Source of the DNA: Shigella phage ESh3 | Sequence record: ON528717 | DNA: 39,180 nucleotides | Reading direction: 5' to 3' (one strand) | Part shown: positions 4,168 through 39,180 of the stretch, one piece after another | Numbering within the stretch: the stretch's first letter is position 1 | How the letters are laid out: every line of letters begins with the position of its first letter | The notes under the pieces: generated by a model | The model's input: only the letters and a program-made list of their open reading frames with translations | Database searches by the model: none | Told to the model about the DNA's origin: nothing | Made by a program: the position numbers and the translations under genes

Positions 4168-4215
4168 AAACTCAAGGTCACTTACCGAGTGGCCTTTATG
4201 ATTGACCTTCTTCCG
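4168..4215 (+). promoter_or_regulatory. RNase III site R1.1
   Basis: ctcaaggtcacttaccgagtggcctttatgattg hairpin motif shared with other R sites in this genome. Confidence 0.55.
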
Positions 4216-34772: not shown

Positions 34773-36533
34773 GTGTCTACTCAATCCAACCGTAATGCGC
34801 TCGTAGTGGCGCAACTGAAAGGAGACTTCGTGGCGTTCCTGTTCGTCTTATGGAAGGCGTTAAACCTTCCGGTGCCAACTAAGTGTCAGATTGACATGGC
34901 TAAGGTACTGGCGAATGGGGATAACAAGAAGTTCATCCTACAGGCTTTCCGTGGTATCGGTAAGTCGTTCATCACATGTGCGTTCGTTGTGTGGTCCCTA
35001 TGGAGAGACCCTCAGTTGAAGATACTCATTGTATCAGCCTCTAAGGAACGTGCAGACGCTAACTCCATCTTCATTAAGAACATCATTGACCTGCTGCCAT
35101 TCCTCGCTGAGCTAAAGCCGAGGCCCGGTCAGCGTGACTCTGTAATCAGCTTTGATGTAGGCCCAGCCAATCCTGACCACTCTCCTAGTGTGAAATCAGT
35201 AGGTATCACTGGTCAGTTAACTGGTAGCCGTGCTGACATTATCATTGCGGATGACGTGGAGATTCCGTCTAACAGTGCGACTATGGGTGCCCGTGAGAAG
35301 CTCTGGACTCTTGTTCAGGAGTTCGCTGCGTTACTTAAGCCGCTGCCCACCTCTCGCGTTATCTACCTCGGTACACCTCAGACAGAGATGACTCTCTATA
35401 AGGAACTTGAGGATAACCGTGGGTACACAACCATAATCTGGCCTGCTCTGTACCCAAGGACTCATGAAGAGAACCTCTATTACTCACAGCGTCTTGCTCC
35501 TATGCTACGCGCTGAGTACGATGAGAACCCTGAGGCACTTGCTGGTACTCCTACAGACCCTGTGCGCTTTGACCGTGATGACCTCCGTGAGCGTGAATTG
35601 GAATACGGTAAGGCTGGCTTCACACTACAGTTCATGCTTAACCCGAACCTGAGTGATGCCGAGAAGTACCCTCTGAGGCTCCGTGACGCTATCGTAGCGG
35701 CCTTAGACTTAGAGAAGGCCCCAATGCATTACCAGTGGCTTCCTAACCGTCAGAACATCATTGAGGACCTTCCTAACGTTGGTCTTAAGGGTGATGACCT
35801 TCATACGTACCATGATTGCTCCAACAACTCAGGTCAGTATCAACAGAAGATTCTGGTTATTGACCCTAGTGGTCGCGGTAAGGACGAAACAGGTTACGCT
35901 GTTCTGTACACCCTGAACGGCTACATCTACCTTATGGAAGCTGGAGGTTTCCGTGATGGCTACTCCGATAAGACCCTTGAGTTGCTCGCTAAGAAAGCTA
36001 AGCAATGGGGAGTCCAGACGGTTGTCTACGAGAGTAACTTCGGTGACGGTATGTTTGGTAAGGTGTTCAGTCCCATCCTTCTTAAACACCACAACTGTGC
36101 AATGGAAGAGATTCGTGCCCGTGGTATGAAAGAGATGCGTATTTGTGATACCCTTGAGCCAGTCATGCAGACTCACCGCCTTGTCATTCGTGATGAGGTC
36201 ATTAGGGCCGACTACCAGTCCGCTCGTGACGTAGACGGTAAGCATGACGTTAAATACTCACTGTTCTACCAGATGACCCGTATCACTCGTGAGAAAGGTG
36301 CTCTGGCCCATGATGACCGATTGGATGCCCTTGCGTTAGGCATTGAGTATCTCCGTGAGTCCATGCAGTTGGATTCCGTTAAGGTCGAAGGTGAAGTGCT
36401 TGCTGACTTCCTTGAGGAGCACATGATGCGTCCTACAGTGTCTGCTACCCACATCATTGAGATGTCTGTAGGAGGAGTTGATGTGTACTCCGAGGACGAT
36501 GAGGGTTACGGTACGTCTTTCATTGAGTGGTGA
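34773..36533 (+). CDS. 19: gene 19 terminase large subunit (DNA maturase B), apparent GTG start
   Basis: 586 aa [45 protein letters not shown]..., RBS aaggagg 4 nt upstream. Confidence 0.97.
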
Positions 36534-36614
36534 TTTATTCACTGAGACTGCATAGGGATGCACTATAGACCACGGATGGTAAGTTCTTTAAGTTACTGAA
36601 AAGACACAATAAAT

Positions 36615-36637
36615 TAATACGACTCACTATAGGGAGA
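36615..36637 (+). promoter_or_regulatory. phage RNAP promoter phiOR (right-end replication/packaging promoter)
   Basis: TAATACGACTCACTATAGGGAGA exact. Confidence 0.9.
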
Positions 36638-36792
36638 GGAGGGACGAAAGGTTACTATATAGATACTGAATGAATACTTATAGAGTGCATAAAGTATGCA
36701 TATAGGTGTACCTAACGTGACCTCTAAGAATGGTGATTATATTGTTATTAATATCACCTCTACTTAAAGACCAACATAAAGGAGGGAGACTC

Positions 36793-36942
36793 ATGTTCCG
36801 CTTATTGTTGACCTTGTTGCGGCATAGAGTCACCTACCGATTTCTTGTGGTACTTTGTGCTGCCCTTGGGTACGCATCTCTTACTGGAGACCTCAGTTCA
36901 CTGGAGTCTGCCGTTTGCTCTATACTCACTTGTAGCGATTAG
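36793..36942 (+). CDS. 19.5: gene 19.5, small hydrophobic protein
   Basis: 49 aa MFRLLLTLLRHRVTYRFLVVLCAALGYASLTGDLSSLESAVCSILTCSD; RBS aaggaggga. Confidence 0.75.
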   Translation: MFRLLLTLLRHRVTYRFLVVLCAALGYASLTGDLSSLESAVCSILTCSD

Positions 36943-36959
36943 GGTCTTCCTGACCGACT

Positions 36960-37181
36960 GATGGCTCACCGAGGGATTCAGCGGTATGATTGCATCACGC
37001 CACTTCATCCCTATAGAGTCAAGTCCTAAGGTATATCCACAAAGAGCCTCTAATGGTCTATCCTAAGGTCTATACCTAAAGATAGACCATCCTATCAGTG
37101 GAACCTAAAGAGGGTCTCAGAGAGGGCCTAAGGAGTCCATAGAGGGTCCTTTAAAATATACCATAAAAATCTGAGTGACTA
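36960..37181 (+). repeat. right-end non-coding region with CCTAAAG/CCTAAGG-type short repeats preceding the terminal repeat (packaging / concatemer-processing region)
   Basis: cctaaggtatatcc..cctaaggtctatacctaaagatagaccatcc..aacctaaagagggtc..gggcctaaggagtcc; matches recalled T7 right end. Confidence 0.45.
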
Positions 37182-37347
37182 TCTCACAGTGTACGGACCT
37201 AAAGTTCCCCCATAGGGGTACCTAAAGCCCAGCCAATCACCTTGAGTCAACTTTCAGTTGACCTTGAGGGTTCCCTAGGGTTGGGGTTGGTCCCTTGGGG
37301 TTTACCTTGAGTGTCTCTTCTTGTCCCTATCTGTTCAGTCTCCTAAA
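37182..37347 (+). repeat. direct terminal repeat of the linear genome (single collapsed copy); physical genome ends lie here
   Basis: Begins TCTCACAGTGTACGGACCTAAAGTTCCCCCATAGGGG and ends ..CTGTTCAGTCTCCTAAA, colinear with the recalled 160-bp T7 terminal repeat. Confidence 0.6.
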
Positions 37348-37348
37348 G

Positions 37349-37512
37349 TATCCTCCTAAAGTCACCTCCTAAAGTCATTCCTACCGTCTACAACCTAAAG
37401 ACTACACCTAAAGACCCATCGAGTCAACGCCTATCTTAAAGTATCTTCTAAAGACCATCCTAAAGACCATTCTAAAGACCATCCTAAAGACCATCCTAAA
37501 GCCTATTCCTAC
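37349..37512 (+). repeat. left-end short tandem repeat region (CCTAAAG heptamers, then a 12-bp tandem array of about 6 units)
   Basis: gtatcttctaaa gaccatcctaaa gaccattctaaa gaccatcctaaa gaccatcctaaa gcctattcctac at 37441-37512. Confidence 0.6.
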
Positions 37513-37562
37513 AGACGCCTTGTTGTTATCTATAAAGAGATAATCTTCAATCATTGTCTCTT

Positions 37563-37585
37563 TAATACGACTCACTATAAGGAGA
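37563..37585 (+). promoter_or_regulatory. phage RNAP promoter phiOL (left end)
   Basis: TAATACGACTCACTATAAGGAGA. Confidence 0.8.
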
Positions 37586-37634
37586 CTACTTAAAGATACC
37601 TTAAAAGAGAAATTAAAGAATTTTAAAAAGAGTA

Positions 37635-37663
37635 TTGACTTAAAGAGTCCTAGGGATTACTAT
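37635..37663 (+). promoter_or_regulatory. host sigma70 early promoter A1
   Basis: -35 TTGACT, 17-bp spacer, -10 TACTAT. Confidence 0.7.
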
Positions 37664-37761
37664 TCATCTCGTCAACGGGACAACGGCCTTAAAGCCACTC
37701 CCTGAGATACCGGGGTCAACCGGATAAGTAGACAGCCTGTAAGTCGCACGAAAAACAGGTA

Positions 37762-37791
37762 TTGACAACACGAAATAACATGCAGTAAGAT
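37762..37791 (+). promoter_or_regulatory. host sigma70 early promoter A2
   Basis: -35 TTGACA, 18-bp spacer, -10 TAAGAT. Confidence 0.75.
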
Positions 37792-37876
37792 ACACAACGT
37801 AGCGTCAACCGGACGCACGCAAGGTGTCTTCTAGGTGACTTAAGCGCACCACGGCACACAAAGTGAAACAAAACGG

Positions 37877-37905
37877 TTGACAACATGAAGTAAACACGGT
37901 ACGAT
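37877..37905 (+). promoter_or_regulatory. host sigma70 early promoter A3
   Basis: -35 TTGACA, 17-bp spacer, -10 TACGAT. Confidence 0.75.
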
Positions 37906-38044
37906 GTACCACAGCTACCACAGGGTAGCACATGAAACGACAGTGAGGCGCAACACTGAAAGGCGCTAGGGTCTAACGAAACCTGACCGACATGCTCTTT
38001 AACAATCTGGTAAATAGCTCTTGAGGTGCACGAATAGCGGATAA

Positions 38045-38081
38045 CTCAAGGGTATCGCAAGGTGCCCTTTATGATATTCAC
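38045..38081 (+). promoter_or_regulatory. RNase III site R0.3
   Basis: ctcaagggtatcgcaaggtgccctttatgatattcac hairpin upstream of gene 0.3. Confidence 0.5.
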
Positions 38082-38106
38082 TAATAACTGCACGAGGTAA
38101 CACAAG

Positions 38107-38448
38107 ATGGCTATGTCTAACATGACTTACAACAACGTTTTCGACCACGCTTACGAAATGCTGAAAGAAAACATCCGTTATGATGACATCCGCGACACTG
38201 ATGACATGCACGATGCTATTCATATGGCTGCCGATAGCGCAATCCCGCACTACTACGCTGATATTTTTAGCGTAATGGCAAGCGAGGGCATTGACCTTGA
38301 GTTCGAAGACTCTGGTCTTATGCCGGACACCAAGGACATAATCCGTATCCTGCAAGCTCGTATCTATGAGCAACTCACGATTGACCTCTGGGAAGACGCT
38401 GAGGACTTACTTAACGAGTACCTTGAGGAAGTCGAGGAAGAAGAGTAA
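38107..38448 (+). CDS. ocr: gene 0.3 Ocr, DNA-mimic anti-restriction protein (inhibits type I R-M; reported to inhibit BREX)
   Basis: 113 aa [77 protein letters not shown]..., acidic. Confidence 0.95.
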
Positions 38449-38603
38449 TGGCTAACAACAACACGCAATACGGTCTGACCGCTCAAACTGTACTGTTTTA
38501 TAGTGACATGGTGCGCTGTGGGTTTAACTGGTCGCTCGCAATGACACACCTTAAGGAACTGTACGAAAACAACAAGGCAATCGCTCTAGAATCTGCTGAG
38601 TGA
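38448..38603 (+). CDS. 0.4: gene 0.4 (in T7, inhibitor of FtsZ / cell division)
   Basis: 51 aa [51 protein letters not shown]; ATG overlaps ocr stop. Confidence 0.85.
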   Translation: MANNNTQYGLTAQTVLFYSDMVRCGFNWSLAMTHLKELYENNKAIALESAE

Positions 38604-38607
38604 TAGG

Positions 38608-38650
38608 CTCAAGGTCGCTCCTAACGAGTGGCCTTTATGATTATCACTTA
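38608..38650 (+). promoter_or_regulatory. RNase III-type site (R0.5), copy a of a 43-bp direct repeat
   Basis: ctcaaggtcgctcctaacgagtggcctttatgattatcactt. Confidence 0.6.
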
Positions 38651-38671
38651 ACTTGCAGTAGGACTAACATC

Positions 38672-38872
38672 ATGAGTAAACTTTTGGCAACCTCCAAAAT
38701 CAAAGGCCAATGCACTGTGACACTGCGTGAGTATTACCACGGGTCTATGGGAAGCACCTACGTTGTACGATACGGTAAACAGGTAACACATTGGGTAAAC
38801 CCGATTTTGGCGCAAGAAGAGTATCAAGCCTGTGTGATACACCAAGCAACATGTGCAGGCTGGAATGATTGA
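38672..38872 (+). CDS. 66-aa early accessory ORF of unknown function, bracketed by the duplicated R site
   Basis: MSKLLATSKIKGQCTVTLREYYHGSMGSTYVVRYGKQVTHWVNPILAQEEYQACVIHQATCAGWND; track ORF starts at 38600, ATG 38672 chosen because it follows R site copy a. Confidence 0.6.
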   Translation: MSKLLATSKIKGQCTVTLREYYHGSMGSTYVVRYGKQVTHWVNPILAQEEYQACVIHQATCAGWND

Positions 38873-38924
38873 CAACACTATTTGCACTAACTGGACATAG
38901 CCTTCGAGTCTACCCAGTGATAAA

Positions 38925-38967
38925 CTCAAGGTCGCTCCTAGCGAGTGGCCTTTATGATTATCACTTT
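38925..38967 (+). promoter_or_regulatory. RNase III-type site, copy b of the 43-bp direct repeat (42/43 identical to copy a)
   Basis: ctcaaggtcgctcctagcgagtggcctttatgattatcactt; upstream gtgata also shared with copy a. Confidence 0.6.
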
Positions 38968-38988
38968 TACTTATGGGAGTAATACACA

Positions 38989-39117
38989 ATGCTTACTATC
39001 GGTCTACTCACCGCTCTAGGTCTAGCTGTAGGCGCATCCTTTGGGAAGTCTTTGGGTGTCGCTGTAGGCGCTTACTTGGTCGCTTGTATCATCACGGGAG
39101 CACTACGCAAATGCTGA
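38989..39117 (+). CDS. 0.5: small hydrophobic membrane peptide at the gene 0.5 position
   Basis: 42 aa MLTIGLLTALGLAVGASFGKSLGVAVGAYLVACIITGALRKC; RBS gggag 9 nt upstream; Gly/Ala-rich TM-like. Confidence 0.6.
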   Translation: MLTIGLLTALGLAVGASFGKSLGVAVGAYLVACIITGALRKC

Positions 39118-39128
39118 AACAGCACGGT

Positions 39129-39180
39129 ATGAAACACTACGTTATGCCCATCCACACTTCCAACGGGGCAACTGTATGCA
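39129..39180 (+). CDS. 0.6: gene 0.6A, N-terminal part (continues at window position 1)
   Basis: ATG 39129 then MKHYVMPIHTSNGATVC, open to the end of the window and in frame with 1..107. Confidence 0.6.
   Translation, partial: MKHYVMPIHTSNGATVC

Follow-up and report, generated by a model that had tools for sequence, protein, structure and literature searches.

The sequence record ON528717 (Shigella phage ESh3), a stretch of 39,180 nucleotides (nt) hereafter referred to as the window, represents a complete, circularly permuted T7-like genome. In its early region, an open reading frame (ORF) of 66 residues (38672-38872, plus strand) lies between homologs of T7 genes 0.4 and 0.5, and an RNase III-type hairpin is found on either side of it. 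The ORF corresponds to gene 0.45 of the phiYeO3-12/phiSG-JL2 group. We consider it probable that the region is a mobile gene 0.45 module of the Studiervirinae, placed between two intact R0.5-type hairpins and moved by homologous recombination within the hairpin. The gene, its processing site and the exact layout are already present in public records, and what we describe is thus a known and ordinary module that comes and goes.

The original prediction for this region, made from the sequence alone, had proposed a 43-bp direct repeat with 42/43 identity. A repeat search detected a 70-nt direct repeat (38580-38649 versus 38897-38966, 84% identity) with a core of 42 nt at 38608-38649 and 38925-38966. 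The two cores are identical at 41/42 positions, the remaining one being an A/G position, and 100 dinucleotide-preserving shuffles gave no match to the core. The repeat is therefore present where it had been placed. Its figures need correction: the core that had been quoted is 42 nt long, and the 43-nt spans given for it (38608-38650 and 38925-38967) agree at 41/43 positions, with an A at 38650 and a T at 38967. The proposed extension of the similarity upstream to gtgata was also confirmed, the heptamer agtgata being shared 5' of both copies.

Both copies fold into the two-stem hairpin with an internal loop that is typical of T7 RNase III sites. Each is about 50 nt long and consists of a lower and an upper stem, both of about 10 bp, with the internal loop between them; the two copies thus have the features of R0.5/R0.45-type sites. 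The upstream hairpin displayed a folding free energy of -25.3 kcal/mol (z-score -5.3) and the downstream hairpin one of -22.1 kcal/mol (z-score -5.5), and for each of them none of 200 shuffled sequences folded as well. The downstream core is identical to T7 1440-1471 and its flanks, and the upstream copy differs from it by one loop base. The assignment of both copies as RNase III-type sites in the original prediction thus agrees with the fold, the z-scores and the homology to T7 R0.5. We then examined 39 distinct R0.5-type hairpins from the fetched loci, 25 of which share the standard 56-nt length and were aligned. When the structure predicted for the window copy was applied to these 25 sequences, 93% of the cells formed standard pairs, and four pairs exhibited compensatory double changes. 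Pairing was only 26-55% when the 3' partner was slid by one to three columns, indicating that the register is specific. The covariation supports the view that the hairpin is a conserved RNA structure. We also noticed that an R1.1-type hairpin at 4173-4202 of the window shares the 3' half GAGTGGCCTTTATGAT with the R0.5-type copies, and the conserved hairpin sequence therefore extends beyond the 0.3-0.7 region.

As for the ORF, the original prediction had seen no recognisable motif in it. Its product is in fact 97% identical to phiSG-JL2 gp0.45 over 66/66 residues and 97-100% identical to entries labelled gp0.45 and 'putative 0.45 protein'. It matches PHROG 6500, a family of unknown function, over residues 1-66 (E=5.4e-45). 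The exact protein is on deposit under Shigella phage ESh3, labelled as hypothetical, and falls in the same 90%-identity cluster as NP_072070.1 and ACD75664.1. With tblastn, the gene 0.45 protein was found in 156 of 50,697 phage records, with about 15 listed host genera and mostly at 80-100% identity.

The nucleotide differences were then compared with the reading frame. Third codon positions account for 14/16 differences from phiSG-JL2 and for 5/6 differences from Yersinia phage vB_YpYeO9 (YpYeO9), the latter with no amino-acid change. In 16 pairwise comparisons the differences were overwhelmingly at third positions (17/19 in a further example), and the protein stayed 80-100% identical despite drift of the DNA. 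An AGGA motif is located 8 nt 5' of the ATG, and the leader ATAGGACTAACACC together with the ATG is kept 5' of gene 0.45 in both T3-like and T7-like contexts; the leader moves with the gene. Judging from this pattern, gene 0.45 is a real gene under strong purifying selection. Two other frames, a reverse-strand ORF of 113 residues (38648-38989) and a 90-residue ORF extended to a GTG, were set aside, as the codon-position pattern fits the 66-residue plus-strand frame, which has the conserved ATG and Shine-Dalgarno-like motif. The gene is unannotated in several deposits, including OQ828305 (YpYeO9), MN026740 (C2), ON528716 (ESh2), MG832642 (HZ2R8) and others. YpYeO9 is the closest cassette-bearing relative of the window.

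The flanks of the two hairpins revealed how the module is bounded. In an alignment with T7, phiSG-JL2 and YpYeO9, everything from the downstream hairpin onward corresponds to T7 R0.5 and gene 0.5, the upstream hairpin and all sequence 5' of it correspond to T7 gene 0.4 and R0.5, and the segment between the hairpins corresponds to the leader and coding sequence of phiSG-JL2 gene 0.45. The ORF is thus flanked by the two copies and by the 0.4 and 0.5 homologs as had been predicted, and relative to T7 the window harbours one extra gene and one extra site between genes 0.4 and 0.5. The closest whole-genome relative of the window is Shigella phage ESh1, with 96.3% identity over 25 kb. ESh1 is without exactly one repeat unit and gene 0.45 (317 bp), and its flanks are the outer flanks of the two window copies. 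No gene 0.45 is found in the T3 record. The two-site arrangement is therefore not universal in the group, as T7, T3 and ESh1 do not have it, and the original prediction, which was to be given up if the arrangement were universal, is not refuted on this count. Nor is it unique. In GenBank the junction 0.4-hairpin-0.45 occurs in 15 phage records and the junction 0.45-hairpin-0.5 in 10. The identical protein is encoded on 18 assembled metagenomic contigs, and all of the 10 that were read display the order ocr-0.4-0.45-0.5-0.6-0.7, in which 0.45 has a hairpin before and after it. A hairpin scan of IMG/VR returned 19 stretches, mostly from the same genomes. The novelty that the original prediction had implied is removed by these 10-15 records and 10 contigs. 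The two-site layout is neither universal nor unique, and represents a presence/absence difference bounded exactly by the repeat.

We next tabulated gene order in 26 early regions. The R0.5-type hairpin is present in one to three copies per early region, always between modules, and the modules that it delimits are the S-adenosylmethionine (SAM) hydrolase gene (SAMase), ocr-0.4, an ORF of 94 residues, 0.45, and 0.5-0.6. The orders, with R denoting the hairpin, are as follows.

SAMase-R-0.45-0.6: phiYeO3-12 type.
SAMase-R-0.6: T3.
ocr-0.4-R-0.5: T7.
ocr-0.4-R-0.45-R-0.5: the window.
ocr-0.4-R-[94-residue ORF]-R-0.45-R-0.5: EG1 and WW2.
SAMase-R-ocr-0.4-R-0.45-0.6: P694.
SAMase-R-0.45-0.5: ESh2, in which an R0.5-type hairpin was also found between 0.45 and 0.5.
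0.45 directly after SAMase, with no matching hairpin: Klebsiella-type genomes.

The 5' flank of the hairpin tracks the preceding gene, being CTGAGTGATAG after 0.4, CCCAGTGATAA after 0.45, GTAAGTGATA after SAMase and ACTAGTGATAA after the 94-residue ORF. The 3' flank tracks the following gene, and 5' and 3' flanks are combined in many ways. Such mixing would be expected from crossovers within the hairpin, and the combinations therefore point to crossovers at this position. Together with the difference from ESh1, they make recombination at the R0.5 hairpin, as the original prediction had proposed, the best explanation for the layout. BLAST comparisons of the window with T3-like phages revealed 87-88% identity over the hairpin and gene 0.45, whereas gene 0.7 aligned in patches only (67-81%) and the start of gene 1 at 74-77%. 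Taking into account that 87-88% exceeds 67-81%, the module has a more recent cross-lineage ancestry than its neighbours.

The early region of the window runs from about 37600 to the window end and resumes at position 1. Its order, taken from the sequence and the ORF list, is three promoter-like sites, an R0.3-type hairpin, ocr, 0.4, a hairpin, the 66-residue ORF, a hairpin and 0.5. The individual features are given below.

37635-37905, plus strand: three sigma-70 promoter-like sites (promoter scan), at positions matching A1-A3 in the annotation of T7, T3 and phiYeO3-12.
38036-38082, plus strand: R0.3-type RNase III hairpin 5' of ocr (fold), with the same core sequence as the T7 R0.3 region.
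38107-38448, plus strand: gene 0.3 (ocr), 113 residues (Pfam PF08684, E=1.3e-62; PHROG 2568).
38448-38603, plus strand: gene 0.4 homolog, 51 residues (ORF list, comparison with T7 gp0.4, PHROG 7202).
38597-38650, plus strand: upstream R0.5-type hairpin, equivalent to 'R0.45' of phiYeO3-12/phiSG-JL2 (fold, repeat, alignment, covariation).
38651-38671, plus strand: leader of gene 0.45, with the AGGA Shine-Dalgarno-like motif at 38660-38663 (conserved 'ATAGGACTAACACC ATG').
38672-38872, plus strand: gene 0.45, early protein of 66 residues (gp0.45 identity, PHROG 6500, codon pattern, AlphaFold2).
38873-38896, plus strand: non-coding trailer of gene 0.45 ('..CGCTATTTGCAC..', also 3' of 0.45 in P694-type genomes).
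38897-38923, plus strand: probable scar, putatively derived from the 3' end of a 0.4-type gene and since diverged (70-nt repeat, BLAST against T7).
38916-38965, plus strand: downstream R0.5-type hairpin, orthologous to T7 R0.5 (fold; core identical to T7 R0.5).
38989-39117, plus strand: gene 0.5 homolog, 42 residues, hydrophobic (ORF list; PHROG 16572, E=7e-26; clusters with T7 gp0.5).

Gene 0.45 is located in the class I (early) region, 5' of the gene 0.7 kinase. The TGA stop of gene 0.4 (38601-38603) sits within the lower stem of the upstream hairpin, and both hairpins are intercistronic and downstream of the A1-A3-like promoters. Several other properties of the surroundings were observed. 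Arrays of CCTAAAG-type short repeats are present at 37025-37515, with five overlapping copies spaced by 12 nt at 37426-37509; these resemble the arrays beside the left-end terminal repeat of T7-group genomes, and the window therefore represents a rotated whole genome. At 38440-38448, ocr is without 27 nt that are present in ESh1, corresponding to nine codons of an acidic, EDYEEGEE-like C-terminal tail. Directly past the gene 0.5 stop, the window carries a 15-nt insertion relative to ESh1 (39117-39131; TGAAACAGCACGGTATGAAACAC versus TGAAACAC), and this insertion at the 0.5/0.6 junction looks like a short duplication.

The gene 0.45 product was examined for clues to its function. The AlphaFold2 model (predicted local distance difference test score 89.9) shows four beta strands and then a helix at the C terminus. 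When 5.8 billion proteins were searched with a word index, only 19 clusters came up, none below 65% identity to gp0.45, and a HMMER profile scan of 1.84 billion representatives gave 39 matches at E<=1e-3; cellular homologs were found in neither. Most of the 39 matches are proteins of 60-90 residues with GQxxVTL, YxVxYG and C-x2-H-x3-CAG motifs, and gp0.45 belongs to a wider family of phage proteins of about 60-90 residues with the YG and H-x3-CAG motifs. In an alignment extended to 14 of the distant members, residues Y34, G35, A47, H57 and C61 do not vary. The same fold was found in BFVD among uncharacterised proteins of about 60 residues from Bordetella, Pseudomonas, Klebsiella and Escherichia phages, including Bordetella phage BB8, Pseudomonas phages phiIBB-PF7A and VCM, and the jumbo phages RaK2 and PBECO4. 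On the other hand, Foldseek against the PDB gave no match for the model, the NCBIfam and PDB sequence searches gave none either, the best Pfam match was Root_cap at E=0.08, below the cut-off, and the PHROG matches were to families of unknown function only. A four-ligand zinc site (C14/C54/H57/C61), an idea prompted by a Cys-to-His swap in EG1 and P694, was considered and dropped, as three of the four positions vary in wider alignments. Position 14 is C, H, Y or F, C54 is replaced by S or N in some members, and C61 by Y or G in two close homologs; of the four, only H57 and C61 stay constant when the distant members are aligned. In the searchable literature we found no published functional work on gp0.45, and the name appears there in one paper only, as a BLAST label. 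Taking into account its position, size, conservation and patchy distribution, which are the sole basis for this working guess, gp0.45 is most likely a conserved, dispensable, cytoplasmic early protein whose binding partner during takeover is a host macromolecule.

The following mechanism would account for these results. Host RNA polymerase would transcribe the early region from A1-A3 as a single long RNA; in the window, the sites at 37635-37905 would drive such a polycistronic transcript, including the gene 0.45 cassette. Host RNase III would cut the internal loop of each hairpin, and from the likeness to T7 a cut is predicted after CCUUUAU, at about 38638/38639 and 38955/38956. Cleavage of the T7 R0.5 site has reportedly been mapped experimentally by Dunn and Studier (1983). 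Cleavage at both sites would free a monocistronic RNA of about 317 nt that carries gene 0.45 alone and retains a protective 3' hairpin, apart from the 0.3-0.4 and 0.5-0.7 messenger RNAs (mRNAs). At the DNA level, the hairpin of about 50 nt, near-identical at every module boundary, may serve as a homology patch for recombination. Crossovers inside it would carry a 3' half-hairpin, the leader, gene 0.45, the trailer and a 5' half-hairpin between genomes, and the pair of direct repeats, once present, would allow crossovers to excise the module cleanly. The product, gp0.45, would then most likely bind its host macromolecule in the course of takeover.

Concerning the direction of the event, the sequence 5' of the downstream hairpin provides a clue. 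Positions 38897-38923 read IAFESTQ-stop, compared with IALESAE-stop where gene 0.4 ends (17/27 nt); the register with respect to the hairpin is the same in both, and BLAST alignments to T7 begin exactly at 38897, on the end of T7 gene 0.4 (1410 onwards). As this segment resembles the last codons of gene 0.4, the downstream copy presumably once followed a 0.4 gene directly, which suggests that the gene 0.45 module was originally an addition and that 38897-38923 is a putative 0.4 remnant. The spacer between 0.45 and the second hairpin occurs in three nested lengths in the 10 contigs, with the hairpin at +215, +233 or +255 from the ATG. The longest is that of the window, and the trailer at 38873-38896 is missing from the shorter cassette variants. 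The nested series looks like stepwise deletion of a non-functional scar.

An alternative concerns this direction only and is otherwise compatible with the mechanism above. The order ocr-0.4-R-0.45-R-0.5 may be the older state in this lineage, with T7 and ESh1 as deletion derivatives produced by recombination between the direct repeats. T7 is said to delete DNA between short direct repeats readily (Studier and colleagues, 1979), ESh1 lacks exactly one repeat unit and the gene, which is the product expected from such recombination, the three spacer lengths reveal ongoing deletional erosion, and the two-site layout is common in environmental contigs. However, the second hairpin is preceded by an apparent 0.4 tail, as if that copy had once adjoined 0.4 in the manner of T7, most Teseptimavirus-type records have a single site, and the likeness to T3-like phages is far greater in the module than in the genes around it, a contrast that speaks for horizontal acquisition. 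We regard deletion as a possible direction, but the less favoured one. Our conclusion is that the module was acquired via hairpin recombination and has repeatedly been lost in the same way; the event that separates the window from ESh1 may have been a gain or a loss.

Several points weigh against the mobile-module explanation. Rfam matched no family anywhere in 36500-39180, even at E<=1, and thus offers no independent model-based call; the identification of the hairpins therefore rests on homology to T7 R0.5. Cleavage at the two window sites is a prediction from likeness to T7. Recombination within the hairpin is inferred from the flank combinations. In the match to the 0.4 end, 6 of the 17 matching nt (of 27) belong to the hairpin stem. 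Finally, the structural resemblances of gp0.45 are weak and generic, providing no functional pointer.

The original prediction had described the region as a moron-like cassette, and it could be supposed that the gene is a recent acquisition of this kind encoding an anti-restriction or anti-defence factor. Gene 0.45 lies in the first DNA to enter the cell, beside ocr and 0.4, it is dispensable and patchy in distribution, its strong conservation implies that it is clearly useful on some hosts, and its product is small and without cellular homologs. A moron would be expected to have its own promoter and terminator and a distinct base composition. A promoter scan called no sigma-70-like promoter between 38604 and 38988, the sole terminator-like match in the cassette was the minus-strand image of the hairpin, and the G+C content of the cassette (0.445-0.46) falls within that of the flanks (0.42-0.50). 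The moron label was therefore rejected. In addition, gp0.45 exhibited no likeness in sequence or structure to characterised anti-defence families (Ocr, Acr and similar). We consider a recently acquired anti-defence cassette unlikely, and the anti-defence or host-modulation role put forward in the original prediction a conjecture. We noticed a perfect TTGACA at 38869-38874, overlapping the 0.45 stop; it has no acceptable -10 hexamer 16-18 nt downstream and was not called by the promoter scan.

A broader proposal joins two claims, and we doubt that both hold together. The first is that the RNase III hairpins of the Studiervirinae may act as portable recombination junctions, allowing integrase-free exchange of cassettes that shuffles SAMase, ocr-0.4, the 94-residue ORF, 0.45 and 0.5-0.6 between T7-like and T3-like phages, and that each host-takeover or anti-defence gene may in this way bring a ready-made mRNA processing site. 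The second, separate claim is that gp0.45 may be a counter-defence or takeover effector, representing a phage family of about 60 residues (four strands and a helix, YG, H-x3-C) that ranges from podoviruses to jumbo phages. In the searchable literature we found no explicit description of the hairpin as a recurrent module junction, although this absence is not proof of novelty.

It is still less probable that gp0.45 is a small nucleic-acid-binding regulator, with a sheet-plus-helix fold like those of AP2, integrase arm-binding or WGR domains, acting on host or phage DNA or RNA. That the ORF is spurious, and the region just a processing site duplicated in tandem around non-coding DNA, can be practically dismissed: the gene is unannotated in several GenBank records, including that of YpYeO9, but the predominance of third-position substitutions (14/16, 5/6, 17/19) with a protein 80-100% identical, the conserved Shine-Dalgarno-like motif and start codon, the confident fold prediction, and remote homologs of the same length and fold in unrelated phages refute this.

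Returning to the mobile gene 0.45 module, the window and ESh1 constitute a near-isogenic natural pair with a clean 317-bp presence/absence difference, and provide a handle on the function of a widespread, conserved early protein. One hairpin sequence marks the site-bearing module boundaries in the surveyed T7/T3-type (enterobacterial) early regions, Klebsiella-type genomes excepted, and this pattern illustrates how regulatory RNA elements may act as crossover points in phage mosaicism. For annotators, the records in which gene 0.45 was missed call for caution.

T7 (NC_001604) R0.5 has the same core, downstream leader and gene 0.5 as the downstream copy of the window, and T7 gene 0.4 has its stop inside the stem as at the upstream copy. 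T7 has one site and no gene 0.45, whereas the window has two copies with 317 bp between equivalent positions. In phiYeO3-12 (NC_001271) and phiSG-JL2 (NC_010807), the same 66-residue protein and leader are present, and the hairpin directly 5' of 0.45 already bears the annotation 'putative RNase III site R0.45'. The phiYeO3-12 genome paper of 2001 reportedly named both the gene and its site. In these two phages the upstream gene is that for SAM hydrolase (0.3) in place of ocr-0.4, and there is no second hairpin 3' of 0.45, which runs directly into 0.6. Compensatory changes set the upper stem of the phiSG-JL2 hairpin apart from that of the window.

The layout ocr-0.4-R-0.45-R-0.5-0.6-0.7 is identical in vB_YpYeO9, Salmonella phage C2, the Escherichia phages CICC 80001, 04922B and KKE5P, and Serratia phage Pila, which differ from the window only in hairpin loop bases and spacer length, and in whose records gene 0.45 is often unannotated. 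The YpYeO9 protein is identical to that of the window, and its cassette DNA is 93% identical. Escherichia phage EG1 (locus 1595-2280) and Yersinia phage vB_YenP_WW2 (locus 1457-2164) also carry the module between 0.4 and 0.5, bounded by R0.5-type hairpins. Unlike the window with its two copies, they have three such hairpins in one early region, and an extra module, the conserved 94-residue ORF, lies between the first two, ahead of 0.45. Escherichia phage P694 (locus 1300-2720) harbours both a T3-type SAM hydrolase and T7-type ocr-0.4 with an R0.5-type hairpin between them, followed by 0.45 and a T3-type 0.6. In Escherichia phage 13a (EU734174), a homologous gene annotated as gp0.45 is likewise situated between duplicated RNase III-type hairpins. 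Its protein is more diverged, with DNA about 67% identical, and here the duplicated site is of the R0.3 type and 0.45 is the first early gene, ahead of ocr (880-1220). The 13a hairpins are located at 888-916 and 1149-1177, and the second is chimeric, its lower stem being of the R0.5 type and its upper stem of the R0.3 type. Phage 13a is thus an independent case of the duplicated-site footprint, at R0.3.

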